Shown here piece by piece: positions 3 through 27,064 of a DNA stretch of 64,000 nucleotides. Below the pieces are notes generated by a model, which made no database searches, was not told where the DNA came from, and worked only from the letters and a program-made list of their open reading frames with translations. Source of the DNA: Thermoanaerobaculia bacterium (lineage in GTDB: Bacteria > Acidobacteriota > Thermoanaerobaculia > UBA5066). Location of the stretch: contig JBBRRY010000020.1 in assembly GCA_038245905.1 (NCBI GenBank), positions 9,006 to 73,005 of the forward strand, in the 5' to 3' direction. The position numbers and the translations under genes were made by a program. Position 1 is the stretch's first letter. Each line of letters starts with the position of its first letter.

Positions 3-1853
3 CCCCTGCCCGCGCGGCACGTTCTCGACCGCTGCCTCGAGCGGGACCTCGGCAAGCGGCTTTCGGAGATCGGGAAGGCGAAGCAGGAGCTGGAACGGGC
101 GAGCGCGCAGGCCGGCGCGAAGCAATTGCGCCGGCGCTCCGCAGGGGCCGTACTCGCCGTGGTCCTCGCCGCCGCCGCGGCCGTCGTTCTTTTTGCGGCT
201 CGTGGACCGTGGCGGTGGACCCGGCGGCAGAAGATGCCTGCGGCTCCGGCCGAAACCAGACACACTCAACTGACTTTCACGGGAGACGTGGAAAACGTTG
301 CGCTCTCGCCCGACGGCCGGACGATCGCCTACGCGGCGGGCGACCAGGATAGGAAGGTGCGGGTGTTGGTCCGTGATCTTGGCGCCGGACAGCCGGTGCA
401 GGTCTGGGAGGGCGCGTCCGTTTGGGACATGAGGTGGACACCGGATGGACTCTACGTGCTGGTGTCCGGGAGACAGTTCGCGGGGCAGGACCCGTCTATT
501 CAGCTCGTGCCGCGCCTTGGTGGCGCCACCCGACTGGTGCCCGCGACGCCGTCGTCCATCGGGTCCCTTGCGGTCTCCCCGGACGGTACGCGCGTAGCGA
601 CAGCCAACGCGATATCCGGCGGCGTGGAGATCGTGAGTATCGAGTCGGGAAAGCGGGAGCACATACCGCTCCCCGACGCCCAGTACACCTGGGCGCTCGA
701 CTGGAGTCCAGTTAGCAACAGGTTGTCTGTCTTCTCCTATGACAAGAACAACCACCCAAACGTTTCTGTCGTCCTGCCAGACGGGAAGGGCTTGCGAAGC
801 GTCTACACCGGGCTGGAGAGGCTGACGGGTGGGTGCTGGTCTCAGAGCGAGGATGTCCTATACCTCGAGCGCCTTCGCGACGAGTCCATCGATCTCCTGC
901 GTCTTTCAACAGCAGACGGCGACGCCGCGCTTCCGGTCGTGCTCTTGAGTGCACTGCCGTCGGCTTACCGCTGCCAGATCTCAGCGGATGGACAGCGCCT
1001 AATTCACACCCGGGTGAACAGCGAGGCGAACCTGTCCCACGTCGACCTCGAGGCGCGCGGAGGCGCGCCGGTCGGCCTCACGCACGGAACGTGGAAGCTC
1101 GAGATCCCGCGCGTCTCGCCGGACGGGCGCTGGATATCGGCCACACGAGGCAAGGAGATCGTCAGGTTCCCGATCGGCGGCGGCGAGCCGGTCGTCCTAA
1201 CGAGCGGACACTACGCCAGCTGGTCGCCCGACGGGCGAAGGCTCGCATTCGCATCCGACCGTGGCGGCAAATGGCGTCCATGGGTCGCCGGTGCCGATGG
1301 TCAGCAGGCGCGAGAGATTCCGGGGGCGGACGCCCTCGCCGACCAGGACGTGAGGTGGTTTTCCGACGAACGGCTCGCCTGGCACACGCCGGATGACCGT
1401 GATTACAGGATCCGTGATCTGAAGAGCGGCGTCGAAGAATCCCTGGTAAAGGACCCTTCGGCTGGATTCGTCTTCTTCCCCTGTCTCTCGCCGAAAGGCG
1501 ATCAGATAGCGGTCTTCTGGAATCGCACGCCTGGTTTCAAGGCTGGGCTCTGGGTGATCTCCTGGCCCGCGCGTGCCGAGCGCCTCGTGGCGCCTGACCT
1601 GATGCCGTTCGGCTGGTCGGCGGATGGAAAGTGGATTTACGCGTTCAATCAGAAAGACGACGCGATCGTGCGTGCCGCCTCCGAAAGCGGAAAGGTTGAA
1701 ACGATCGCGCGCAGAGCCCCGGGAGCGCCGAGTTTCACCTCGTGCGGTCTGACGCCAGACACGCGATCTGCAGTCTGCGCGGAGACAACCTACAAGACGG
1801 ACGTCTGGATGATCGAGCACTTCGATCCGCTCGTCGCGCGGCCGAAACGCTGA
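3..1853 (+). CDS. Ser/Thr kinase C-terminus + TM + PD40/TolB-like beta-propeller (5' truncated by window edge)
   Basis: The frame is open from position 3 (PLPARHVLDRCLERDLGKRL, resembling the end of a Hanks kinase domain), followed by a hydrophobic helix and repeated SPDG/WSPDG propeller blades. Confidence 0.8.
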   Translation, partial: PLPARHVLDRCLERDLGKRLSEIGKAKQELERASAQAGAKQLRRRSAGAVLAVVLAAAAAVVLFAARGPWRWTRRQKMPAAPAETRHTQLTFTGDVENVALSPDGRTIAYAAGDQDRKVRVLVRDLGAGQPVQVWEGASVWDMRWTPDGLYVLVSGRQFAGQDPSIQLVPRLGGATRLVPATPSSIGSLAVSPDGTRVATANAISGGVEIVSIESGKREHIPLPDAQYTWALDWSPVSNRLSVFSYDKNNHPNVSVVLPDGKGLRSVYTGLERLTGGCWSQSEDVLYLERLRDESIDLLRLSTADGDAALPVVLLSALPSAYRCQISADGQRLIHTRVNSEANLSHVDLEARGGAPVGLTHGTWKLEIPRVSPDGRWISATRGKEIVRFPIGGGEPVVLTSGHYASWSPDGRRLAFASDRGGKWRPWVAGADGQQAREIPGADALADQDVRWFSDERLAWHTPDDRDYRIRDLKSGVEESLVKDPSAGFVFFPCLSPKGDQIAVFWNRTPGFKAGLWVISWPARAERLVAPDLMPFGWSADGKWIYAFNQKDDAIVRAASESGKVETIARRAPGAPSFTSCGLTPDTRSAVCAETTYKTDVWMIEHFDPLVARPKR

Positions 1854-1950
1854 CTTCTGGAAGGTCCGGAACGTGTAGGTCTGCAACGGGCTTTGCGAGG
1901 CCGTGGTCGATGTGATGTTGGGCCAGCCCTGTATCCTTTGCCGGACTTCC

Positions 1951-2655
1951 ATGCGCCTCGACGCCGTCCGCCGTCTCTGGCAACGTCTCGTAGACCGGGG
2001 ACCGGGTGCCCTCGAGGAGCCTGGTTCGTTTACGGACAGCGAACGCGAGGCCGGGCGCATGGTTCTCCCTCTCATACGGGACCTGAGCGCGGCTCGCCAA
2101 GCCATCGACGAGGTGGCACGCCGCACGCAAGCACTCGAGACCGCACTCGACCACCTGCCGGTCGCCGCGATCGCCGTCGACGAGGAATCCCGCTACCTCA
2201 CTGGAAACGCCGCAGCCAATCGCCTTTTTGGCGGGCCGGCAGTGCCCGAAGTCGTCCTCGACGCAGCGGCACGCGCCGTCGGAGCCGAAGAGCCGCCCAA
2301 GGCGAGAGTCGGAGGACGCATCGTCCGCCTCGTCACGGGTGTCGCCTCGCGGCCGAGCCCCGACGGCCGGCCAGAAAGCGTCGTTTCGCGCGTGATCTTC
2401 CTCGTGCCGGCCGACGGCACCTTCGAACTCGACACCCAGGACCTCCAGACCCGCTTCGGCCTCACGCGGATGCAGGGTCGCGTCGTCGGGCTGACCGCCC
2501 AGGGCCTCACGAACAAGGAGATCGCTGCCCGCCTCTCGATCTCGGCCGAGACCGTCCACAAGCACCTCGTATCGACGTTCCAGAAGAGCGGGGCCTCCAC
2601 GCGCGCCGGCCTCGTCGCCATGGCGTTCGGCTCACGGTTCGGAATCGATATCTGA
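1951..2655 (+). CDS. LuxR-type HTH transcriptional regulator (PAS-like middle region)
   Basis: C-terminal GLT..QGRVVGLTAQGLTNKEIAARLSISAETVHKHL..FQKSG motif. Start is ATG 1951 or GTG 1903. Confidence 0.85.
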   Translation: MRLDAVRRLWQRLVDRGPGALEEPGSFTDSEREAGRMVLPLIRDLSAARQAIDEVARRTQALETALDHLPVAAIAVDEESRYLTGNAAANRLFGGPAVPEVVLDAAARAVGAEEPPKARVGGRIVRLVTGVASRPSPDGRPESVVSRVIFLVPADGTFELDTQDLQTRFGLTRMQGRVVGLTAQGLTNKEIAARLSISAETVHKHLVSTFQKSGASTRAGLVAMAFGSRFGIDI

Positions 2656-2666
2656 ATCCGCCTCCA

Positions 2667-2686
2667 CATACCCCATTCGGGTGATG
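2667..2686. promoter_or_regulatory. Imperfect palindrome, candidate LuxR/NarL-type activator box
   Basis: CATACCCCATTCGGGTGATG lies just after the LuxR gene and upstream of a TACCTT -10-like hexamer (2707-2712) of the hydrolase gene. Confidence 0.4.
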
Positions 2687-2755
2687 CGCCCGAGGCCCCT
2701 CTTTCCTACCTTGTCTCGCAATCCGGGACTTCAGCCGACCGGATCGGAGGCAACG

Positions 2756-5476
2756 ATGAGAAACTTTTCGACTGGAATCGGGCGTCGTCCGGGTTTGCTT
2801 CTGGCAGCCGCGTTTCTCGCGGCCGCCTTCGCGCTGCCGGCTGAGGCGCGCGTCGGCCGCGTCGTGATCAGTTTGAAGGAGTCTCCGACGTTCGGGGGAA
2901 TGACTTTCGGCAGCGTTGGCGCCTACGAGAAGCTCCGCGGCGTCCTCTACGGCGAGGTCGACCCGAACGACCCGAAAAACGCCCCGATTGCCGACCTCGC
3001 GCTCGCGCCGCGAAACGCGCGCGGACACGTCGAGTACTCGGCGGACGTCCTCATTCTCCGGCCGGTGGACCCGGCAAAGGCGAACGGACGCCTCTTCTAC
3101 GAAGCCAACAACCGCGGAGTCCTCTACTCGCTCGGCATGCTGAACGACGCGGTGACGGGCGGCAGTGACCCGAGCGCGGCCTTGGACGCCGGCAACGGCT
3201 TTCTCATGCGGCTGGGCTACACGATCGTCCTCAGCGGCTGGGACTTCACGGCCCCGGCCGGCGCCGGGCGACTCACGTTCACGCCGCCCGCGGCCGTGAA
3301 TCCCGACGGATCTCCCATCGTCGGCCTCTCGCTTGAGGAGCTCGTCGTCGACAACACGACGACGACGAGCGGCACCCTGACGTACGCCGCCGCCGACCTC
3401 GACAAGTCGAAGGCGAGTCTGACCGTACGCAACCACTACGCCGACCCGCCGGCCGGCGTCTCGGCGACTGGGTGGGAATACGTGAACGACCATACAATCC
3501 GCCTGCTCCCGGCCGGCACGAGCTTCGCCAGCGGATCACTCTACGAATTCGTCTACCCCGCCAAGAACCCTGTGGTGGCGGGCCTGTCATTCGCGGGCAT
3601 CCGGGACTTCCTCGCGTTTCTCCGCACGGGTTCGGCCGACGACTCCGGGACTCCCAACCCCGTCGCGGGGCGCGTCGACAAGGTCTACTCCTTTTGTTTC
3701 TCGCAACCATGCCGCCTGCTCCGCGACTTCGTCAGGCTCGGCTTCAATCAGGACGAGTCGGGCCGGCAGGTGCTGGACGGAGTCCTGAACTGGGTGGGCG
3801 GCGCGAGTAGCGGCTCCTTCAACCATCGGTTTGCGCAGCCGTTCCGGACGCATCGCCAGCACATCAGCCGCTGGTACCCGGAGGCCATCTTCCCATTCGC
3901 CGACGTCACGCTCTTCGATCCCGTCACCGGAAAGACCGGCGGGCTCCTGGCAACCTGCGGTCTGAGCGGGACGTGCCCGAAGATGTTTGAGGCGAACTCG
4001 GCAAACGAGTACTGGGCGAAGACGGGCTCGCTCCTTCACACCGACCCGCTCGGGACCGTCGACCTCGCGAACCACCCGAACGTCCGCCTCTACTTCGTCG
4101 CGGGTCTTCCGCACAACGCGGGCGTTCCGAGCGCCACGGCTCCCGGAATCTGCGCGCAGACGAGGAACCCGCTCGTCGCGAACCGGACGATGCGAGCGCT
4201 CCTCGTCCGGCTGGACGAATGGATCTCGAAGGGCCAGGAGCCGCTAGCGAGCCTCGTCCCGCGCCTCGACCAGGGCACCCTCGTGCCGCCCCTCCCGCAG
4301 GCGGGCGAAGGATTTCCGTCCATTCCCGGCGTGACATACACCGGCCTCACTCACACAGGAGATCTTCTCGACTTCGGCCCCAGTTTCGACGCGCAGGGGA
4401 TCTGGTCGAAGGTGCCACCGGTCCTGCTGGGCTCGCCGTACGCCATCCTGGTTCCCAAGACCGACAAGGACGGCAACGATCTCGCAGGACTGCGCATGGT
4501 CGAGATCGCGGTGCCAACCGCGACGTACACCGGATGGAACATGCGGTCCGGTCCAGCCTCTCCGGACGGCTGCGACGCCTCCGGCATGATGCTCGCCTTT
4601 CCGAAGACGAAGGCCGAGCGCCTCGCGAGCGACGACCCCCGTCTGTCGCTCGAGGAGCGCTACCCTCAGCACGCACAGTACGTCGACGCCGTCAACGCGG
4701 CCGCATGGAAGCTGCGCACGTCCGGCCTCCTGCTCGACGAGGACGCGGCCCGCTACACGGCCGAGGCGCAACGAAGCGCTGTCGGGCTCTCGACCTGGCT
4801 GCTGCCGTCGTCCGCCCACACGGCGGGAGCGAGCGGAGTCCCGTACACGACGGACATCACGGTCGCGAATACCGGCAACGCGGACGCCGCCTTCACGCTG
4901 AAGTTCCTGGGCCACGGCATCGACGGGCGTCCCGGCCCCGAAAAGAGCTTCACCTTGGCGGCGGGAAAGTCAGTTTCTTATCGCGACGTGCTAGGCGCAG
5001 CCTTCGGCGTGTCATCCGACTGGGGCGCGATCCGGCTCTCCTCGACGACGGCGACGCTCTCCCTCGCGTCTCAGACCTGGACCCCGTCGCCCTCGGGCGG
5101 CACGGTCGGCCAGGCGGTTCCGGCTTTCTCGGATGCCGAGCAGATCCATAACGGAACGACCCGCTCCATCCTTGCAATTAGTGAAGACGATTCCGTGCGG
5201 ACGGACCTGTTCCTCGCGAACGCCACCGAGTCCCCCATGGACGTGGACGTGGCTCTCGTGGGCGAGTCCGGCGCCGCCCTCGGCACGCAGCGGGTCTCGC
5301 TCTCTCCGCTCGGCATGGCGCAGCTGACCCGGGTGGTGAGGGCCTTGGGCGTCTCGGCCAACGTCGGGGGGGCGCGACTCATACTCTCGACTCCCACCTC
5401 TACCGGTGCATTCGCTGCATACGCCTCCGTCATCGACAACGCGTCGAACGACCCACGGACGCTCCTGCCAGAATAG
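2756..5476 (+). CDS. Secreted alpha/beta-hydrolase-domain protein with C-terminal repeated module
   Basis: GGAGG RBS at 2746-2750 before ATG 2756; signal peptide (ALPAEA); motifs FGSVGAYE, YEANNRG, DPRLSLEERY; C-terminal module ending YASVIDNASNDP. Confidence 0.8.
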   Translation: MRNFSTGIGRRPGLLLAAAFLAAAFALPAEARVGRVVISLKESPTFGGMTFGSVGAYEKLRGVLYGEVDPNDPKNAPIADLALAPRNARGHVEYSADVLILRPVDPAKANGRLFYEANNRGVLYSLGMLNDAVTGGSDPSAALDAGNGFLMRLGYTIVLSGWDFTAPAGAGRLTFTPPAAVNPDGSPIVGLSLEELVVDNTTTTSGTLTYAAADLDKSKASLTVRNHYADPPAGVSATGWEYVNDHTIRLLPAGTSFASGSLYEFVYPAKNPVVAGLSFAGIRDFLAFLRTGSADDSGTPNPVAGRVDKVYSFCFSQPCRLLRDFVRLGFNQDESGRQVLDGVLNWVGGASSGSFNHRFAQPFRTHRQHISRWYPEAIFPFADVTLFDPVTGKTGGLLATCGLSGTCPKMFEANSANEYWAKTGSLLHTDPLGTVDLANHPNVRLYFVAGLPHNAGVPSATAPGICAQTRNPLVANRTMRALLVRLDEWISKGQEPLASLVPRLDQGTLVPPLPQAGEGFPSIPGVTYTGLTHTGDLLDFGPSFDAQGIWSKVPPVLLGSPYAILVPKTDKDGNDLAGLRMVEIAVPTATYTGWNMRSGPASPDGCDASGMMLAFPKTKAERLASDDPRLSLEERYPQHAQYVDAVNAAAWKLRTSGLLLDEDAARYTAEAQRSAVGLSTWLLPSSAHTAGASGVPYTTDITVANTGNADAAFTLKFLGHGIDGRPGPEKSFTLAAGKSVSYRDVLGAAFGVSSDWGAIRLSSTTATLSLASQTWTPSPSGGTVGQAVPAFSDAEQIHNGTTRSILAISEDDSVRTDLFLANATESPMDVDVALVGESGAALGTQRVSLSPLGMAQLTRVVRALGVSANVGGARLILSTPTSTGAFAAYASVIDNASNDPRTLLPE

Positions 5477-18299: not shown

Positions 18300-19748
18300 A
18301 TGGCGGACTCAATTCCTCCCGGAACCCGCTTCGGCGACTACGAGATCCTCGAGGAGCTCGGCGCCGGCGGAATGGGAAAGGTCTATCGCGCGCGGGACCT
18401 CACGCTCGAGCGTGTCGTCGCCCTGAAGACGCTCGCCCACCAGTTCTCGTCAGACGCGAATTTCGTGCAGCGTTTCCTCAAGGAAGCCCGGGCGGCGGCC
18501 CGGCTGAACCAGCCGAATATCGTCCAGATCTACGACTTCGGCTGCGTCGACTCGGTCTACTACCTCGCGATGGAGTTCGTGGACGGGCACTCGCTGGGAA
18601 CCTACCTGAAGCGCGGCCATTTCAGCGAGGCGGAGTCGATCCAGATCATCCGGCACGCGTGTCGTGCGCTCTCGGTCGCGCACGCCGACGGCATCGTCCA
18701 CCGCGACATCAAACCCGACAACATGATGCTCACGAGCCGTGGCGACGTGAAGCTCGTGGACCTCGGGATTGCCAAGCGTATCGACGAGGATCAGTCCTTG
18801 ACGCAGACGGGCCAGGCGATCGGCACGCCGCACTACATATCGCCGGAGCAGATCCGCGGGCAAAAGGATGTGGATGCGCGGGCGGACGTCTATTCGCTGG
18901 GCGCGACGCTCTACCACCTCGTGACCGGGCACACGCCTTACTCGGGAGCGTCCGGCCCCATCGTCATGTCGATGCACCTCGTCGAGCCTCTGCCTGACCC
19001 CCGCCGCTTCGAGGCGGGGCTTTCGGAGGGCATCTGCCGCGTCATCCGCAAGATGATGGCGAAGGATCGCGACCAGAGGTACGGCGACGTTTACGTGCTC
19101 GACCTCGACCTATACCGCCTGCAGTGCGGCGACATGCCGCAGCCCGACGAACAGCAAGGCACGGCGATGGAAGGGCCCGGCGTGATGCCCGCCTCCCCCG
19201 GATACGTTCCGGTGCCGGGCGGGACTTTCGACTCGGGAATCCTGAACCGCATCGAGGAGAACCTGGCGTCCGCCGTGGGACCGATGGCGAAGGTCCTTGT
19301 CCGGAAGGCCGCGCGGACGGCCCCGACACTCGAGGCGCTCTGCGGCACGCTTGCCGAGCAAGTCGCCGACACCGTCACGCGGGACAGGTTTCTCTCGAAG
19401 TGCCTTCTGGCCGCGCGGACGCCGACCGGTGCGAACCGGCCCGGCCGTACGACGCCGGCGCGCGCGAGCGAGGCGCGCACTGAGCTGCGGAGCGGGGACG
19501 GGCCGGTCGCCGGCTCTTCCCGGATGCCCGATTCGGCCGGCCGGACGCTCTTGATCTCCGAGGAGGACCTGCGCGCCGCCGAGACCGAGCTCGCGAAGCA
19601 GATCGGGCCGCTCGCGCGCGTCGTCGTGAAGCGTGCGGCGAAGGGTGCGGGAACGCTCGCCGATCTCATTGCAAAGCTGGAGCTCGACATCCCGACCGAC
19701 GAGAGCCGCCGCGCGTTCCGCGAGGCAATGCGAAAACGCCTGCGCTGA
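18300..19748 (+). CDS. Cytoplasmic Ser/Thr kinase with duplicated C-terminal helical domain
   Basis: GAGGMGKVY, HRDIKPDN, DLGIAK and YISPEQ motifs; two copies of LA..(V/I)GP(M/L)A(K/R)V.V..AA. Confidence 0.92.
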   Translation: MADSIPPGTRFGDYEILEELGAGGMGKVYRARDLTLERVVALKTLAHQFSSDANFVQRFLKEARAAARLNQPNIVQIYDFGCVDSVYYLAMEFVDGHSLGTYLKRGHFSEAESIQIIRHACRALSVAHADGIVHRDIKPDNMMLTSRGDVKLVDLGIAKRIDEDQSLTQTGQAIGTPHYISPEQIRGQKDVDARADVYSLGATLYHLVTGHTPYSGASGPIVMSMHLVEPLPDPRRFEAGLSEGICRVIRKMMAKDRDQRYGDVYVLDLDLYRLQCGDMPQPDEQQGTAMEGPGVMPASPGYVPVPGGTFDSGILNRIEENLASAVGPMAKVLVRKAARTAPTLEALCGTLAEQVADTVTRDRFLSKCLLAARTPTGANRPGRTTPARASEARTELRSGDGPVAGSSRMPDSAGRTLLISEEDLRAAETELAKQIGPLARVVVKRAAKGAGTLADLIAKLELDIPTDESRRAFREAMRKRLR

Positions 19749-19788
19749 GCAGCTTGCGGCGGCCGGCGGATTCTTCTTGTACAAGGCT

Positions 19789-20676
19789 TCAGTCTTGCCG
19801 CGTCTTGCGTGGCAGATGGATGGTAGCGGTCGTGCCGCGGCCGGGCGCGCTCTTGATCCACAGGTAACCGCGGCTGTTCTTGACGATCCCGTAGGCGGTC
19901 GACAGCCCAAGACCGGTGCCTTCCCCGACGGGTTTCGTCGTGAAGAAGGGCTCGAAGGCCCTCGCGAGCGTCGCCGTGTCCATTCCCTGGCCCGTGTCCG
20001 AGACCGTGATCTCGGCATAGGGCCCCGGAGCCACCGGAACGCCCGAGATCCTCTCGCCGGCCTCCACGATGCGCGCGGCCGTGCAGAGAGAGAGGGTGCC
20101 CCCGGCGGGCATGGCGTCCGAAGCGTTCACGACGAGATTCAGGATCACTTGCCCGAGCTGGGCGTCGTCGGCAGCGACGAGCAAGGGCTCCTCGGCGAAT
20201 TGCACGCGTACGGCGACCCGATCCTTCACGAGCCGGCGAATGAGCGGCTCGAGGTCGCCGAGGAACGCGTGGAGGTCGAGCGCCCGTGGATTCACGACGG
20301 CGCTGCGGCCGAACGCGAGCAGGCGCGCGCTGAGGACCGCGGCTCTCTCCGCCGCCTTGACGATCTCCGCCGCGTCCGAGCGCGTGTCGGGATCGCGCGC
20401 CTTCTCCAGAACGAGCGTCGCGAAGCCGAGGATCGCCGTGAGCATGTTGCGAAGGTCGTGCGCCACCTCGGCGGCGTGGCGCCCGACCGCCTCCATCTTG
20501 CGTCCTTCCGCGGCGGACACCTCCAGCTCCCCGACCCTCCGGTTGGCTGCGGCCAGGGATCGCTCGATCGCATGGCGGAGGCGAACCCCTCTCAGGAAGA
20601 GGAGGAACGGAGCGAGGCCCGCCGCCGCGCACGCAATCGAGACGAGAATGACGAGGTCGAGGACTCGAAGAGTCAG
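19789..20676 (-). CDS. Membrane-anchored histidine kinase (HisKA + HATPase, no sensor domain)
   Basis: AHDLRNMLTAILG H-box, QVILNLVVNASDAM, DTGQGM, FEPFFTTK and GTGLGLS. Probable CTG start at 20676 behind GGAAAGGA; the ORF-track start 20868 overlaps the peptide gene. Confidence 0.8.
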   Translation of the reverse strand: MTLRVLDLVILVSIACAAAGLAPFLLFLRGVRLRHAIERSLAAANRRVGELEVSAAEGRKMEAVGRHAAEVAHDLRNMLTAILGFATLVLEKARDPDTRSDAAEIVKAAERAAVLSARLLAFGRSAVVNPRALDLHAFLGDLEPLIRRLVKDRVAVRVQFAEEPLLVAADDAQLGQVILNLVVNASDAMPAGGTLSLCTAARIVEAGERISGVPVAPGPYAEITVSDTGQGMDTATLARAFEPFFTTKPVGEGTGLGLSTAYGIVKNSRGYLWIKSAPGRGTTATIHLPRKTRQD

Positions 20677-20696
20677 GAAACCGTCCTTTCCGGCAT

Positions 20697-20816
20697 TCAG
20701 CCGCCGAGGGGCCGGGTCGACCGGCTGGGGTCCGTCCCGTCGCCGGGAGCGGGTTCGTCGAGAGTGGTCAGTCCGAGAAGAGACAAAACGAGATCGATGA
20801 AGGTCGAAGCGTCCAC
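20697..20816 (-). CDS. Unannotated 39-aa peptide MDASTFIDLVLSLLGLTTLDEPAPGDGTDPSRSTRPLGG
   Basis: GTG start 4 nt after AGGAGGA; hydrophobic N-terminus and polar C-terminus; fills the space between the anti-sigma and kinase genes. Confidence 0.65.
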   Translation of the reverse strand: MDASTFIDLVLSLLGLTTLDEPAPGDGTDPSRSTRPLGG

Positions 20817-20959
20817 GAGTTCCTCCTGTTGCCGCCCTTTCCGGGGCGGCTCGGGAGGCGGAACTCACGAGCGCTCGGTCATCACCGCCTTACATGGATA
20901 GAGACGGTTTTCAGGGGCGGTTTTCAACCACCCTCGAAAGAAAATTCAGAAATTTCGGA

Positions 20960-22336
20960 TCAGGCCCGGCGGCGCTCGTGTCTGGCTGGGAGACCGAGAC
21001 CTCCCGAGAGGACTCCGAGGCACGCCCGCACTCGATCGAGGAGACCCTTCTCGATGTCCCCCCGGTCGAGACACGACGCGAGCTCTTCCCAGGCCGGCAC
21101 GCCCGCGAGAGTCTCGACCGTCACGAAGGACCGCAGCTCCTCGAGGCGCCGGAGGAGCTCATGCGTTCGGGAGAGCCGGCCGAGGCACTCGGCGGCATAG
21201 AGGCGTGTGAAGACCCGGTCCTCCTCGAGATTCATCCGATCCGCCTCGGCTGCCAGCGTGTCGAACGCCGCGAGCGCCCGGGTCGTCTCACCTCGCAGGA
21301 GGTCCAGTTCGGCGAGGCCGATCCGGACCGCGAAGACGAGATTCCCCAGGTCGTGGCGGCGTGCGTCCGCGAGCGCCTGGGCGAAGACGGCCCTCGACCG
21401 GTCGTAAGCACCGACGAGGGCCAACGCCCTGCCGAGGTTGATCTCGGCCGCGGTTCGGACATGGGCGTCATCCGGTCCGTGGAGCCCCTCTATCGTGCTC
21501 TCGAGGAAAGGAATGGCGCGGGCGGGGTTCCCGCGCTGGATGTAGACCCCCGCGAGCGCCCCTTGGGCGCGGGCGGTCCAAGTCTCCTGTTCGTACGACG
21601 CGAAGATCCGCGCGGCGAGCTTGAGCTCGCGCTCCGCGAACGCGAAGTCGGCCTGGAACCCGGCCGCGGATCCCTCGAAGTACGCGCAGACCGCCCGGTC
21701 GAACGGCTCGTCTCCGCAGGAGGCGAACGCGACGCGGGCGGCGTGGGCGGCCGCGCGCGCTTCGGCGAGCCGGCCGATGTTGAGGAGTGCCTGCGACGCG
21801 AGAATCGAGGCCTCCGCCGCGAGGCGATTCGCGGGGACGAAGCCGGACGCGGGCAGGGTTTCCGCGCGCGCCGCGAGGGCGCGTGCGAGCGCAAGGGCGC
21901 GATGGGGCTCGGCCGCCGCCAGGCGCGCGGCGGTCTGCGCGGCGTACAGAAGGCCGAGCCGCCCGGCGTCGGAGTCGCCCGTCTCGGCCAACCGCGCGGC
22001 GAGGGCGTCGTCCGAAGCACGGGCGGATTCCACGATCCGTCGCGCCGTTTGATCCGCTGCCTCCGCAGCCACCGACAGGGTTTGAAGACGGTCGGTTCGC
22101 GCGGACGTCCCTCCAGGCCGCTCGTCCGTCGCGGAGGAGGAGAGGAAGTCGTCGAGGGCGGACGCGGTCTCGATTCCGCCGACGAGGCGTGCGAGCGCCG
22201 CCTGTCGGCGCGTGCAGACGCGGCAGACCGCCACGTGAAGGGCAGCCGCGGCGGCACCCAGCTCGTTCCGGCCCATCTCGAGGCCGAGAAGGTCCGCTTC
22301 GGCAGGGTGCGGGGTCGGACCGTTCAACCGAGACAT
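20960..22336 (-). CDS. Zinc-finger (ZAS) anti-sigma factor fused to a TPR-like solenoid
   Basis: H10-x23-H34xxxC38xxC41 motif; Ala-rich TPR-like helices; no TM segment; start overlaps the sigma gene by 13 nt. Confidence 0.75.
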   Translation of the reverse strand: MSRLNGPTPHPAEADLLGLEMGRNELGAAAAALHVAVCRVCTRRQAALARLVGGIETASALDDFLSSSATDERPGGTSARTDRLQTLSVAAEAADQTARRIVESARASDDALAARLAETGDSDAGRLGLLYAAQTAARLAAAEPHRALALARALAARAETLPASGFVPANRLAAEASILASQALLNIGRLAEARAAAHAARVAFASCGDEPFDRAVCAYFEGSAAGFQADFAFAERELKLAARIFASYEQETWTARAQGALAGVYIQRGNPARAIPFLESTIEGLHGPDDAHVRTAAEINLGRALALVGAYDRSRAVFAQALADARRHDLGNLVFAVRIGLAELDLLRGETTRALAAFDTLAAEADRMNLEEDRVFTRLYAAECLGRLSRTHELLRRLEELRSFVTVETLAGVPAWEELASCLDRGDIEKGLLDRVRACLGVLSGGLGLPARHERRRA

Positions 22337-22902
22337 CCGCGCATCCTTTTCATGCACTGATTGAGACGCTTCCAGACCGCCGGAACGGTGCACCCCGCGT
22401 CGGCCGCGGTCTCCGCGAGTGTCTGGCGCAAAACGCAGTAGGCGCGGATCAGTTGGCGACAGCCGGGTGTCAGGAGACGGAACGCCGAACGCACGTGCAC
22501 GCCGTCGACGATCCGCCGGGCGGTGACCGCGTCGGGAAGATTCGGGTCGAGAGGCCCCTCGTTCCGGCGCTGGCCTTCTCGCTTCTCTAGCCGGTCGACG
22601 CATCGGTTGAAGAAGGCCCCGACGAGATAGCCCTCCATGTTGCGCACGCGCGGCCGCTTCGTGAAGACGGACTCGAACGTGTCCTGCAGGAGATCTTCGG
22701 CCTCGTCGCGGGTCATGCCGAATCGAGTGACTCCCGCGTGGAGAAGGCGCGGCCTGAGGTGACTGTCGAGAGACTCCCAGTCCCAGGTCTCGAGCAGGGG
22801 CGTGGGCGCGGCCGGAGAATCCGCGGGCACGGGTGCAACGCTCCGACTCACGTCCTCACCGAAGGATTCCGTTTCGGCCGATGAGGATCGTCCGCCGCTC
22901 AT
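22324..22902 (-). CDS. ECF-type sigma-70 family sigma factor
   Basis: Region 2 EAEDLLQDTF...YLVGAFFNRCVD; region 4 LTPGCRQLI...TLAETA...VPAVWKRL. Confidence 0.88.
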   Translation of the reverse strand: MSGGRSSSAETESFGEDVSRSVAPVPADSPAAPTPLLETWDWESLDSHLRPRLLHAGVTRFGMTRDEAEDLLQDTFESVFTKRPRVRNMEGYLVGAFFNRCVDRLEKREGQRRNEGPLDPNLPDAVTARRIVDGVHVRSAFRLLTPGCRQLIRAYCVLRQTLAETAADAGCTVPAVWKRLNQCMKRMRGCLG

Positions 22903-22969
22903 CTATTCTCTTCCTTTGGAACGAAGCGTACTCCAAGGGACGGGCACTCGGCCACGAGAGAGCTTCCGG

Positions 22970-24079
22970 CTACGCCGGCGTCACGATGCGCTGGACGAAC
23001 CAGAAGAGGCCGACCGCCGCGATCAGGAGGGAACCGGGGACGACGACGCGGCGGCGGTACCAGGGCCGATCCCGGAACGGCAGCGCGAGGACGGCGAATG
23101 CCGCGAGAATCACCACGAGCTGGCCGCCTTCGACGCCGGCATTGAACGAAAGGAGGGCGGCCGGGATCTCGGGGCGTGGAAGACCGGCCTGCCGCAGCGC
23201 TCCCGCGAAGCCCAGCCCGTGGAGGAGGCCGAACGCGAACACCACGGCCGGCCGCCACGGCGTGAGCCGCCGCGTCGCGACGTTCTCCACGGCGACGTAC
23301 ACGATCGAGAGCGCGATGAGCGGCTCGACGATGCGCGGGGAGAGAGAGACGAAGCCGAGCGCCGCGAGCGCGAGCGCAAGCGTGTGGGCGGCGGTGAACG
23401 AAGTCACCTGCACGAGAAGGGGCTTCAGCCGCGGCGACAGGAGGAAGAGGCCGAGCACGAAGAGAATGTGGTCGGTCCCGTCAGGAAGGATGTGCCGGAA
23501 GCCCATGACGAAGTAGCCGCGCACGACGGCGGCCCGGCTCTCCGGCACGACGCGTGCCCCGAGCGGGAACGGGCGGCTCGTCTCGCCGCCCTTCAGCCAC
23601 TGCCGCATCGGCTCGTCCATCCCTGGCGCCGCGAGGCGGAGAACGACCGTGCCCACGTCGAGCCCGCTCGAGAACGTGAAGGTCTTGGAACCGGTCGGGA
23701 CCGTGCCGGCCAGACGCAGGGTGGGCGCGGAATCGGCGTCTCCTTCGGCCACGAGCGTCGCGGACTCGGGCCGGACGCGGCGGCCATCGAACGACAGAGA
23801 GGACCGCTCGAGGAACGCGCGGACGAAAGGGCCGAAACGCGTCTCGAGGCCAGGCGTCAATCCCATGACGCGCGCCCCCTCCAGGGAAGCGGCCGCCGGA
23901 GCGGGTGGCAGGTGCTCGGCGTCGAGGATCACGTCCAGCCGGAACGTCGCGTCGCTACCGAACGTGATGCCGGCCGCGACCATGACTTCCTGATGCGCGG
24001 ACGCCCGCTGCGCGGCGGCAACTGCCACCGCGAGGAAAAGAACCCGCAGGATCGCCCCGCTCGCCGACCGCGCACCCAT
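22970..24079 (-). CDS. HupE/UreJ family membrane protein with N-terminal exported domain
   Basis: GFRHIL..GTDHILF, FTAAHTL, FGLLHGLGFA and FNAGVEGGQL motifs. Confidence 0.9.
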   Translation of the reverse strand: MGARSASGAILRVLFLAVAVAAAQRASAHQEVMVAAGITFGSDATFRLDVILDAEHLPPAPAAASLEGARVMGLTPGLETRFGPFVRAFLERSSLSFDGRRVRPESATLVAEGDADSAPTLRLAGTVPTGSKTFTFSSGLDVGTVVLRLAAPGMDEPMRQWLKGGETSRPFPLGARVVPESRAAVVRGYFVMGFRHILPDGTDHILFVLGLFLLSPRLKPLLVQVTSFTAAHTLALALAALGFVSLSPRIVEPLIALSIVYVAVENVATRRLTPWRPAVVFAFGLLHGLGFAGALRQAGLPRPEIPAALLSFNAGVEGGQLVVILAAFAVLALPFRDRPWYRRRVVVPGSLLIAAVGLFWFVQRIVTPA

Positions 24080-24487: not shown

Positions 24488-27064
24488 TCACCTCGTCGCA
24501 GGCGTCGGCGCGATCAGTGACTGGAATTCGGAATTGTCCTTCAAGTCCGCGAATTCCGGATCGCGGGCGATCTGCGTCGTGCCCATGCCCCTCGCGACGG
24601 CCTTCCGGAGGAGGGCAAGCGCTTCCGCCTTTCTTCCGAGGACGTTCTCGACGATCGCGGCGCGGAAGAGAACGGTGTGGTTTTCGGGTTGCAGCGCGAG
24701 GGCCTTCTCGACCGAGCTCCGGGCCGCCTCCCGGCGATCCGTCCGGACCTCCGCCTTCGCGACGAGCGCCAGCGTCGCAGCGTCGAGCGGATGGACGGTG
24801 CGCTCGGTGTCGGCGAGCTCGAGGGCCTTGTCGTACGACGCGCGCGCCTTCTCCTCGAGGCGGGGTGCGAGGCGATAGGCGTCTCCCGCGCTGACGCGGT
24901 AGCGGAGATCGCGCGGCACGAGGGCGATCGCCTGTTCGAAGGCGAGCGCCGCCTCCGGAAACCGGCCGAGCAGGTACTCGCACGTGCCGAGGTTCGACCA
25001 GGCGCCCGCGGTGGGAGAAAGAGCGAGCGAATGGCGGAGCGCCGAGCCGGCCTCCTCGAGCCGTCCGAGCCGGAGCAGCGTTCCTCCCATGTTGCTGAGG
25101 ACGCGCGGGACTCCGGGGTTCTTCAGGTCGGCCTGTCGAAACTCCTCGAGAGCGCTGGCGAGATCCCCGCGCCCGAAGAACAACGCCCCTAGCTTGTTGT
25201 ATCCGGCCCAGTAGCCCGCATTGAGCGTCACGGCCCGACGGTAGGTCGCTTCGGCCTCGGCGGCGTCGCCCGCGTCGAGAAGCGCGTCGCCAAGCGCGAG
25301 GAGGCCGTCGGCGGACGGGGCCTGCCTCTCGATCGCGCGCCGGATCTCGACGACAGCCTCCTTCGGCTTGCCCATCATCGCGAGGAGCTGTCCCGACGCG
25401 AGATGGGCCTCGGGCGATCCGTCATCCAGAGTGATCGCGCGTTGGACCGCCGCACGGGCTGCTTCCGCGGCCGCGGGATCCTTCGTGGAACGGTAGCGCT
25501 CGATCCATGCCCGCCCGAGAGCGGCCTGCACGAGCGGCGAACGTTCACCCCCGCCGATGCTATTCAAGAGGTCGATCGCCGCGAGCAGCGAGCGCGGGTC
25601 GTCGTATCTGCGGAGGAGCCCGAGCGCCTTGTAGTACGGCTCGCTCTCGGCGGGCCGTTGCTTCGCGGTCGCGCCCTTTCCTTCGCCCTCGAGGTGAACG
25701 CGGAGGGAGGCGACGACGCTGTCGACGAGGCGGTCCTCGAGTCCGAACTGATCCGTCGCGTTCCCCGCGATCTCGTCGGCTGCGAGGATTCCGGGAGAGC
25801 CCGCCGCGAGCACGTTGTAGGTGAGGCGAGTCTGACTCTCCTGGCGGCGAAGGGCGCCCGTGAGCACGAGGTTCGCGCCGTGGTCCTGGGCGAAGTGCGC
25901 GGGGTCGTCGCCAGCGGCCCCTCCGGCCGCCGCCATCACCATGAGCCCAGGCACCCGGAGCTTCGTGAGCCGCGCGCGGAAACTCTCGGTGAGGCCGTCG
26001 ACGACGAGCTGCCCGTCGGGCCGCCCCGAGAGGTCCTTGAACGGCATGATCGCGAGGTACTTCTCTTTCGGCAGGGCGCCGTCGCCCGAGCGGGTGCGCA
26101 GCAGGAACGCCACGACGAGCGCCGCGATCACAGCGCCGCCGACGGCCGCCCAGCGGAGCGGACGGCGAGTCGCGGGGACGCGCGCAAGCGTCTGCATCGT
26201 CGAATGGCTTGCGAACGCGCCGTCGAGCGCCGACGTCATGTCGCGCACGTCGCGCCACCTCCTGTCGACGCTCTTTTCGAGAAGTCCGCGCAGGAGGTCG
26301 CGGACGGGCGGCGGGGTCGTAGCGGGCAGGGCGTCCCAGTTCGGGTCACGGTCGAGAATCGCCACGAGGATGTCGGACAGCGTCTCGCCGTCGAAGGCCT
26401 TTCGGCCCGCGAGCATCTCGTAGAGAAGACAGCCGAACGACCAGAGGTCGCTCCGTGCGTCGAGCGGCAGCCCGCGCGCCTGCTCGGGGCTCATGTAGCT
26501 CGCCGTCCCGAGGATGAGACCCTGCCGCGTTCCGTCTGCCGCGGCCGTGGGTGACTGGGAGATTCCGGGCGAAGCGCGCTGGGCGGAGATGGCCTTCGCG
26601 AGGCCGAAGTCGAGGAGCTTGACCCGCCCATCCGGCGTCACCTTCACGTTCGCCGGCTTGAGGTCGCGGTGCAGGATGCCCTTCCCGTGCGCGGCCTCGA
26701 GCGCCTCCGCGACCTGGCGGGCGATCCCGAGCGCCTCGTTGACCGGAATCGGGCCGCGGGCGATGCGCTGCTTCAGCGTCTCGCCGGGGACGAGCTCGAG
26801 GCCGAGGAAGTGCGTGCCGCCGATCTCTTCGAAGCTGTAGATCGCCCCGATCCCGGGGTGATTGAGCGACGCGAGAACGTGGGCCTCCCGCGTGAACCGC
26901 GAGAGGCGTTCGGCGTCCGCTGCGAAGGCTTCCGGGAGAACCTTCAGCGCGACTTCGCGCTGGAGGCGCGTATCGCGCGCCCGCCAGACCTCGCCCATGC
27001 CTCCCGCCCCGAGAGGACCGAGAATCTCGTACGCTCCGAGGCGCGAACCGGGTTCGACGGACAT
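24488..27064 (-). CDS. Hanks-type Ser/Thr kinase - TM - TolB-N-like - TPR protein
   Basis: [23 protein letters not shown] and YMSPEQ motifs; clear paralog of 10738-13350. Confidence 0.93.

Follow-up and report, generated by a model that had tools for sequence, protein, structure and literature searches.

What does an anti-sigma protein sense when it has no membrane segment, ends in a long tetratricopeptide repeat (TPR) solenoid, and is followed by a gene of 39 codons? The question is raised by a locus on the minus strand of a 64,000-nucleotide (nt) stretch of a Thermoanaerobaculia genome (assembly GCA_038245905.1, contig JBBRRY010000020.1, positions 9,006 to 73,005; hereafter the window), where genes for an extracytoplasmic function (ECF)-type sigma factor, a putative anti-sigma protein, a small open reading frame (ORF) and a histidine kinase follow one another. 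The locus is best explained as one of many paralogous copies of a signalling cassette that is specific to its lineage, the Thermoanaerobaculia (phylum Acidobacteriota). By analogy with known peptide receptors, the sigma factor would drive the small gene, and the C-terminal unit of its product would be the ligand of the TPR solenoid, in a loop resembling those of the RRNPP family and having an anti-sigma domain as output. This reading is given a probability of roughly 0.45. The features of the locus are listed below in window coordinates.

22324-22902, minus strand: sequence-divergent ECF-type sigma factor, 192 amino acids (aa), from the ORF listing and translation, with weak matches to ECF models
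20960-22336, minus strand: putative anti-sigma protein, 458 aa, ATG at 22336
22136-22336, minus strand: N-terminal domain of the anti-sigma protein (residues 1-67), ZAS-like with three helices, from ligands and fold match
21002-22108, minus strand: C-terminal TPR solenoid of the anti-sigma protein (residues 77-445), presumed sensor, from the AlphaFold2 (AF2) model and the TPR_12 family
20900-20929, minus strand: ECF-like promoter motif (GGTTGAAAAC, 13 nt, CGTCT), at a set distance upstream of the small ORF
20817-20895, minus strand: structured 5' leader with Shine-Dalgarno sequence, from conservation among close orthologues
20697-20816, minus strand: small ORF, 39 codons, from its GTG start and synteny
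19789-20676, minus strand: histidine kinase, 295 aa if begun at a conserved CTG, from the Pfam families HisKA and HATPase_c

A first-pass annotation of the window, made by a model from the letters alone, had described three co-oriented minus-strand genes, the sigma gene overlapping that of the 458-aa protein, and a small ORF opened by AGGAGGA, 4 nt and GTG about 140 nt further on. The ORF listing and the translation agree with all of this. The stop of the sigma gene and the start of the anti-sigma gene overlap by 13 nt; AGGAGGA lies at 20827-20821 and the GTG at 20816, 143 nt after the anti-sigma stop. The gene content was right for these three genes and incomplete as a whole, the histidine kinase gene (19789-20676) and a dedicated promoter having been overlooked. 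The two additions change the circuit, since with them the small gene looks like the main target of sigma.

Loci carrying an anti-sigma homologue were compared in a set of 30 (L001-L030), of which L001-L019 are orthologous to the window locus (41-100% identity). The small ORF was found in all 19 orthologous loci, where it measures 33-40 codons, starts 142-158 nt past the anti-sigma stop, and retains its Shine-Dalgarno sequence. The window uses GTG as start codon, the other 18 loci ATG. Length changes among the 19 loci involve whole codons only, and the codon-position GC content of the small ORF (0.69/0.56/0.77) matches the pattern of the neighbouring genes in its own frame only. Chance alone does not account for the arrangement. 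In ten loci (L010-L019) the kinase gene sits elsewhere, on the opposite strand upstream of sigma, and the small ORF is found after the anti-sigma gene there too. The small gene is thus assigned to the sigma/anti-sigma pair; it travels with the anti-sigma gene, not with the kinase gene. A role as partner of the kinase was rejected for the small ORF, as it stays with the anti-sigma gene when the kinase is elsewhere.

The small protein has a hydrophobic N-terminus, a middle part rich in acidic residues and threonine that varies in length and sequence, and a C-terminus of the form basic-Pro-Ile/Val/Leu-Gly-Gly. The first ~16 and the last ~8 residues are the conserved parts. The N-terminus begins with Met-Asp/Asn, and its hydrophobic stretch measures only ~12-15 residues. 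No match was found for the window protein in Pfam and NCBIfam. A profile of the 19 small proteins retrieved 89 relatives of 29-54 residues from a public protein collection, all annotated as hypothetical and none with a Pfam domain, among which the dominant C-terminus is basic-Pro-Ile/Val-Gly-Gly. In its own genome the profile found the window copy only (E 7.6e-16).

Five copies of the anti-sigma gene reside in the genome of the window. The whole family was surveyed with a profile of the anti-sigma alignment in 42 further regions, in all loci and in the same genome; L031-L049 were omitted as they repeat the same genomes. The 77 ORF matches were reduced to 69 by removal of 6 whose match ends before the C-terminus of the profile, and of 2 with less than 300 nt downstream. 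Small ORFs were then sought by position (start 100-260 nt past the stop, a Shine-Dalgarno word before it, 15-65 codons) and by sequence (positions 2-12 hydrophobic to at least 60%, and Pro-(Ile/Val/Ala/Leu) in the last four residues or two minor variants of it). By these fixed criteria a small ORF follows 49 of the 69 anti-sigma genes, versus 1 of 1714 control ORFs from the same genome (long ORFs with high GC at third codon positions). Nine of the remaining 20 genes, those of the window, L002, L004, L007, L008, L009, L026, L062 and L066, are followed by an ORF whose homology is clear and which misses only the hydrophobicity threshold. Two others, L086 (genome G057) and L087 (genome G045), belong to another family of the order and encode anti-sigma/TPR homologues of 28-32% identity; a conserved 19-codon ORF lies farther downstream in both (210-263 nt), ending in Gly-Pro-Ile/Val-Pro-X. 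To judge from these sequences, the module may reach beyond the family. A scan of the genome of the window for such ORFs regardless of their position (3.8 Mb) found four, three of which follow three of the five anti-sigma genes. The fourth is Arg-rich and looks spurious.

Precursors of all clades feature a hydrophobic, often aromatic N-terminus, starting with Met and an acidic residue or Asn, and end in a unit that closes with Pro-Ile-Gly(-Gly) or a near variant of this sequence. In two paralogue clades they measure 18-21 residues only. Several clades repeat the last 7-8 residues in tandem, with 2-4 exact or near-exact copies, as expected if this unit is the active piece. Where anti-sigma proteins share less than 40% identity, small ORFs are 0.30 identical over the last seven residues versus 0.12 over the N-terminus. 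The C-terminus, which the first-pass annotation had singled out, is accordingly the conserved part of the small protein in the 19 loci, in the 89 relatives and across clades. At 60-80% anti-sigma identity the C-terminal seven residues are 0.41 identical, indicating that the variable positions of the unit change quickly. In a tree of 66 anti-sigma proteins the peptide class tracks the receptor clade. The gene of the small protein is the sole constant companion of the anti-sigma gene, and its C-terminus is conserved and repeated; the C-terminal unit is thus the natural candidate for a ligand.

The gene found after the small ORF varies by clade, and may be the kinase, a 136-aa BsuPI-like protein, or none. 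The conserved 136-aa ORF follows the small ORF in two paralogue clades (contig C6 of the same genome, 94056-94466, plus strand, corresponding to L090, 6057-6467). It has no Pfam match, and lies near BsuPI intracellular proteinase inhibitor domains in a protein-language search (score 0.92, 19/30 matches). If co-expressed with the peptide precursor, a protease inhibitor may be relevant to its processing.

Eight anti-sigma genes of the genus lack a small ORF, and for 6 of them a module with a peptide gene is present on the same contig, 0.6-8 kb away. Two of the peptide-less cases form a convergent pair with the neighbouring module, the peptide gene being placed between both anti-sigma genes. In the genome of the window, contig C6 carries one such paralogue without small ORF (94543-95820, minus strand), convergent at 0.6 kb with a peptide-bearing paralogue, and contig C33 a long-form anti-sigma/TPR protein of 742 aa, also without small ORF (1142-3370, minus strand), at 4.5 kb from a peptide-bearing paralogue. 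Both may be extra receptors for the peptide of the neighbour.

The same data can be read with the small protein as a sigma-controlled product only, either a secreted or membrane-active peptide or the precursor of a modified peptide whose enzymes are encoded elsewhere, the TPR solenoid sensing some other cue, for instance a partner protein or a signal of stress. Of the promoter motif described below, the small gene is the sole visible target, and in one clade (contig C33 of the same genome) it stands alone after the promoter; tandem cores behind a hydrophobic leader are typical of multi-core peptide natural products, and TPR domains bind many kinds of partners. Yet genes for modification, export or immunity are not conserved alongside, neighbours vary by clade, and the strict one-to-one linkage with a cytoplasmic TPR protein, like the presence of peptide-less receptors near peptide modules, is easier to understand if the peptide is sensed. 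A mere product is considered somewhat unlikely.

Tandem units also bear on a third possibility, in which the small protein is never cut and acts as an intracellular adaptor. Its N-terminus would sit on the membrane or on another protein, and its C-terminal tail would dock in the TPR solenoid, tethering or titrating the anti-sigma protein in a cell-autonomous feedback. Such a role would suit the absence of a signal peptide and of processing genes, and the constant location of the conserved unit at the extreme C-terminus, as TPR domains often clamp free C-termini; repeated units could add avidity. The hydrophobic stretch is however rather short to cross a membrane, a 7-mer repeated exactly in tandem suggests that units are released, and the transmembrane helix of the kinase offers no obvious partner in this clade. 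An adaptor is considered quite unlikely.

The 458-aa protein was aligned with its homologues in a set of 21 members (29-85% identity); nine of the 30 loci were omitted, their genes being truncated, frameshifted, or uncertain at the start. The window protein features His10, His34, Cys38 and Cys41 in the arrangement H-x23-HxxxCxxC. His34, Cys38 and Cys41 are invariant in all 21 sequences, and His10 is conserved in at least 90%. Three paralogues have one residue more ahead of the first Cys. No transmembrane segment was found, the top 19-residue Kyte-Doolittle mean being 1.2; the sensor is therefore placed in the cytoplasm. The AF2 model of the whole protein is all-helical (predicted local distance difference test, pLDDT, 85.9), with three helices in residues 13-67, a disordered link (67-76), and the TPR solenoid (77-445). 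The motif, the TPR helices and the lack of a membrane segment had all been noted at first pass.

Folded alone, the N-terminal 80 residues give an AF2 model of pLDDT 84. In a Foldseek search ChrR, RsiW and RslA fill ranks 1-7 and 9, with DdvA-Nt lower. The root mean square deviation (rmsd) of the ChrR, RsiW and RslA matches is 1.7-2.6 A over ~50 residues, and the best match has E 0.35, probability 0.99, and rmsd 1.9 A over 51 residues. A sequence profile of the 21 members, compared with 177,635 PDB sequences, placed RsiW (E 0.13) and ChrR (E 0.85) in the top five. The two are visible with the 21-sequence profile only, as a PDB search with the first 69 residues alone returned chance matches. With its invariant ligands and with ChrR, RsiW and RslA as best fold matches in the PDB, the domain agrees with the ZAS assignment of the first-pass annotation, and is read here as a diverged ZAS-type anti-sigma domain that is predicted to bind sigma.

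The C-terminal part was recognized as TPR by weak Pfam matches in the window protein alone, and by TPR_12 in 21 of 21 members. In the Foldseek search with the whole model, LGN/Pins TPR proteins were best (E 2.7e-6, TM-score 0.45-0.53), and Rap proteins with and without pheromone came next (E 1e-5 to 6e-4; Rap-pheromone complexes, 1e-5 to 2e-4). In the PDB search by sequence profile generic and designed TPR proteins lead, with RapJ at 8e-6 and NprR at 3e-4. The solenoid matches peptide-binding TPR proteins, Rap-pheromone complexes included, in line with the RRNPP comparison made in the first-pass annotation; the resemblance to RRNPP receptors is real but not specific. Comparison of alignment columns with model helices places the invariant polar residues mostly in the first helix of each repeat pair. 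In TPR solenoids the first helices of the repeat pairs line the groove.

The promoter motif is made of GGT, C/T, A/G and AAA, a spacer of 13 nt, and C/T-GTC-C/T. It is placed 111-118 nt from the small ORF in the clade of the window, and 82-88 nt in two others. The motif expression has 40 matches, corresponding to 39 distinct sites, in 544 kb of loci searched on both strands. Of these sites, 31 precede small ORFs and 8 precede the divergently transcribed kinase gene of L010-L019, which is thus marked in 8 of the 10 loci; nowhere else in the loci was the motif found. Eight matches occur in the genome of the window, two of them in cassette context (window and contig C6). Three promoter regions have no second copy in this genome, even with up to 8 mismatches allowed. 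In its AAAC-like and CGTC-like blocks the motif is reminiscent of ECF promoters, and transcription from it is predicted to depend on the neighbouring sigma factor. A canonical terminator separates the anti-sigma gene from the motif promoter in paralogue loci. No sigma-70 promoter was found by a scan of 19600-23100.

Between promoter and small ORF, the leader (20817-20895, ~80 nt) is nearly invariant in the 9 close orthologues. It includes a GGCGG/CCGCC stem around the palindrome GAGCGCTC, and a GC-rich hairpin right before the Shine-Dalgarno sequence. The hairpin is kept by compensatory changes, with differing sequences in two subclades, one of its pairs being CG in 9 loci, GC in 8 and GU in 2. 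In the consensus fold CCUCC also pairs with the Shine-Dalgarno sequence. An Rfam scan of 20500-21100 at E <= 10 returned two matches, both at chance level. The leader may be a translational switch or, given the GAGCGCTC palindrome, a protein-binding site.

The kinase encoded past the small ORF matches HATPase_c (E 6.5e-21) and HisKA (E 2.6e-7) in Pfam, has no sensor domain, and features one transmembrane helix (residues 8-26). It resides downstream of the small ORF in L002-L009; the kinase of L010-L019 lacks the transmembrane helix. No ATG, GTG or TTG is present between the stop of the small ORF and the segment encoding the helix. GAAAGGA, 7 nt and an in-frame CTG (20676) are found at 20674-20690 in all nine close orthologues, ~20 nt past the stop of the small ORF. 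To judge from this conservation the kinase likely starts at CTG 20676, though re-initiation after the small ORF may take place instead. Two alternatives were rejected. A 359-codon ORF starting at GTG 20868 is not the true kinase gene, as its extension, which overlaps the small ORF in another frame, does not share the frame of the kinase core in L003 and L005, and as codon-position GC content over the small ORF speaks against it. A programmed frameshift or read-through from the small ORF into the kinase gene does not agree with the frame relation, which varies among loci (same frame in L005, different in L001 and L003).

Leader and kinase start bear on another reading, in which the small ORF would serve as translated leader, or the region as regulatory RNA, acting in cis on the kinase, and in which the peptide sequence would have no function. 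A conserved structured leader with possible anti-Shine-Dalgarno pairing, a kinase gene lacking a canonical start ~20 nt past the ORF stop, and a whole-ORF ratio of nonsynonymous to synonymous polymorphism (pN/pS) of ~0.6 speak for this reading. The ORF is however kept where no gene follows (L010-L019 and contig C33 of the same genome), its N- and C-terminal residues are conserved over 89 database members, and paralogues retain the C-terminal motif despite unrelated nucleotide sequences. An action in cis is therefore highly improbable.

The sigma factor has E 2.5e-9 and 37.0 bits against TIGR02937 (cut-off 42.9), 20.5 bits against Pfam Sigma70_r2 (cut-off 24) and 15.8 bits against r4_2 (cut-off 25.7). 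A paralogue on contig C33 of the same genome exceeds the Sigma70_r2 cut-off (30 bits). A sigma homologue adjoins the anti-sigma gene throughout L001-L030. These sigma factors share a stretch before region 2, Trp-Asp-Trp-Glu/Asp...Leu...Leu-Arg-Pro-Arg-Leu (window ~22740-22790), preceded by a variable N-terminal tail of 20-45 residues.

Taken together, the parts suggest a circuit in which the soluble anti-sigma protein would hold sigma through its N-terminal zinc-type domain, the TPR solenoid being the sensor. Freed sigma would transcribe the small gene from its one dedicated promoter and, in the clade of the window, the sensor-less kinase as well, which would pass the signal on. The small gene would encode a precursor, and the ~7-8-residue C-terminal unit ending in Pro-Ile-Gly(-Gly) would fit the TPR groove. 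In Rap proteins, binding of Phr shifts the N-terminal domain. By analogy, the bound peptide would shift the N-terminal domain of the anti-sigma protein off its target, and more sigma would be released, in an autoinducing loop. As to uptake, Opp/Dpp-type binding proteins are encoded in the genome of the window (three matches).

Several points weigh against this circuit. The E-values behind the ZAS assignment are not significant (0.13-0.85 by sequence, 0.35 by fold); Pfam zf-HC2 was matched neither by the window protein (E <= 1) nor by the 21 members, among the 25 of 35 families listed. The likeness of the solenoid to TPR proteins is generic, as eukaryotic LGN/Pins and designed TPR proteins outscore Rap. 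The window sigma scores below every curated cut-off. The 13-nt spacer of the motif is shorter than the 16-17 nt of textbook ECF promoters; the motif precedes no sigma gene in the loci, so that no autoregulation of sigma is seen, and no terminator is found between anti-sigma gene and small ORF in the window. As to the small ORF, its pN/pS stays at ~0.6 over the whole length, second codon positions are variable at 12/30 and 16/31 sites in two subclades, and by the strict criteria 20 of 69 anti-sigma genes lack it (9 by inspection). The precursor has no Sec-type signal peptide and no basic residues before the hydrophobic stretch, and no exporter, peptidase or modifying enzyme is encoded beside it. 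Co-folding of the anti-sigma protein with the small protein scored 0.01, a result obtained without controls and counted neither way. A look-up of RNA sequencing runs that include the region listed none.

The ligand reading may be extended to signalling between cells. Leaderless precursors, often with multiple copies of a heptapeptide that ends in Pro-Ile-Gly, would be cut, exported, re-imported, and read in the cytoplasm by the TPR/anti-sigma proteins; each paralogous set of sigma, anti-sigma, peptide and promoter would form a private channel, and peptide-less receptors nearby would listen in. A peptide language of this kind is, on the whole, unlikely.

Among 61 genomes from the order of the window, the 458-aa protein was found in 39, and these comprise all 28 genomes of its genus (the tally includes genome G037). 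Across the phylum 301 genomes were sampled, and 33 of them had a match at E <= 1e-8. Matches spanning both the N-terminal domain and the TPR solenoid were restricted to the family of the window (4 of 4 genomes sampled, its own included) and to G037, from a second family of the order; the rest of the 33 are TPR-only pieces within larger proteins. Related records derive from metagenome-assembled genomes of Thermoanaerobaculia and Acidobacteriota. Cassette hosts are uncultured soil and sediment bacteria.

Hanks-type Ser/Thr kinase genes reside on both sides of the cassette in the window (18300-19748, plus strand; 24488-27064, minus strand). The latter encodes 858 aa, with a long TPR-like C-terminal half. 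A gene for a HupE/UreJ membrane protein (22970-24079) lies directly upstream of sigma.

To our knowledge, the signal is not known for most ECF sigma systems, and little is understood of soluble anti-sigma proteins that carry large sensor domains; peptide signalling via cytoplasmic TPR receptors is known to us only from Firmicutes and their phages. If the proposed circuit holds, it represents an undescribed mode of gene switching, which adds a new class of input to ECF sigma factors and a new output to peptide receptors, in an abundant, uncultured phylum. Signalling between cells, if true, would have no described precedent, either as peptide quorum sensing in a diderm phylum or as peptide quorum sensing that acts through an anti-sigma output. 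The cassette is made of four parts and one promoter, and has diverged into many versions, which are presumably orthogonal and of which a genome holds up to five here. Being small and available in many versions, it is directly testable in a heterologous host, and if working would be a source of orthogonal peptide-controlled switches.

Full-text literature searches, in line with the first-pass annotation, which knew of no described system with an anti-sigma output, found no publication joining anti-sigma, TPR, ECF sigma and small peptide; the supplements of PMC7826278 could list the group. In the sections of PMC7826278 considered here, TPR is mentioned only as extension of ECF42 sigma factors and on an ECF267 FecR-like protein, and soluble anti-sigma variants are said to have possibly been missed. 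ECF42 resembles the cassette in that a TPR regulates an ECF-type sigma factor with no membrane anti-sigma. In ECF42, as far as these sections go, the TPR is fused to sigma and no anti-sigma or peptide gene is described, whereas here it resides on a separate ZAS-type anti-sigma protein to which a small gene is linked.

ZAS anti-sigma proteins such as ChrR (partner of sigmaE in Rhodobacter sphaeroides), RsiW, RslA and RsrA share with the window protein a soluble or cytoplasmic N-terminal helical domain featuring His...His-x3-Cys-x2-Cys. As in the window, the genes of ZAS anti-sigma proteins overlap the preceding ECF sigma gene, and a separate C-terminal sensor is found, as in ChrR. The sensor of ChrR is a cupin, in contrast to the ~370-residue TPR solenoid described here.

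Rap-Phr and other RRNPP systems (NprR, PlcR, PrgX, AimR) of Firmicutes and phages also feature a cytoplasmic receptor made of a small N-terminal helical effector domain and a TPR domain, as a neighbouring small gene whose C-terminal part is the candidate ligand, and their peptides diversify among paralogues. Their output domains are helix-turn-helix or phosphatase/binding domains, whereas the output domain found here is anti-sigma-like. The precursors of the cassette moreover differ in having no Sec signal peptide and frequent tandem units, and the host is a diderm acidobacterium. In the Rgg-SHP and ComR-XIP systems of streptococci the mature C-terminal pheromone is hydrophobic and receptors bind DNA, whereas in the cassette the N-terminus is hydrophobic and the unit is polar and Gly/Pro-rich. 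Both have very short precursors with no classical signal peptide encoded beside the receptor (18-21 residues in two clades of the cassette). In the streptococcal systems the peptide gene is the main target of the regulator, in a positive feedback; the cassette would share this feature.

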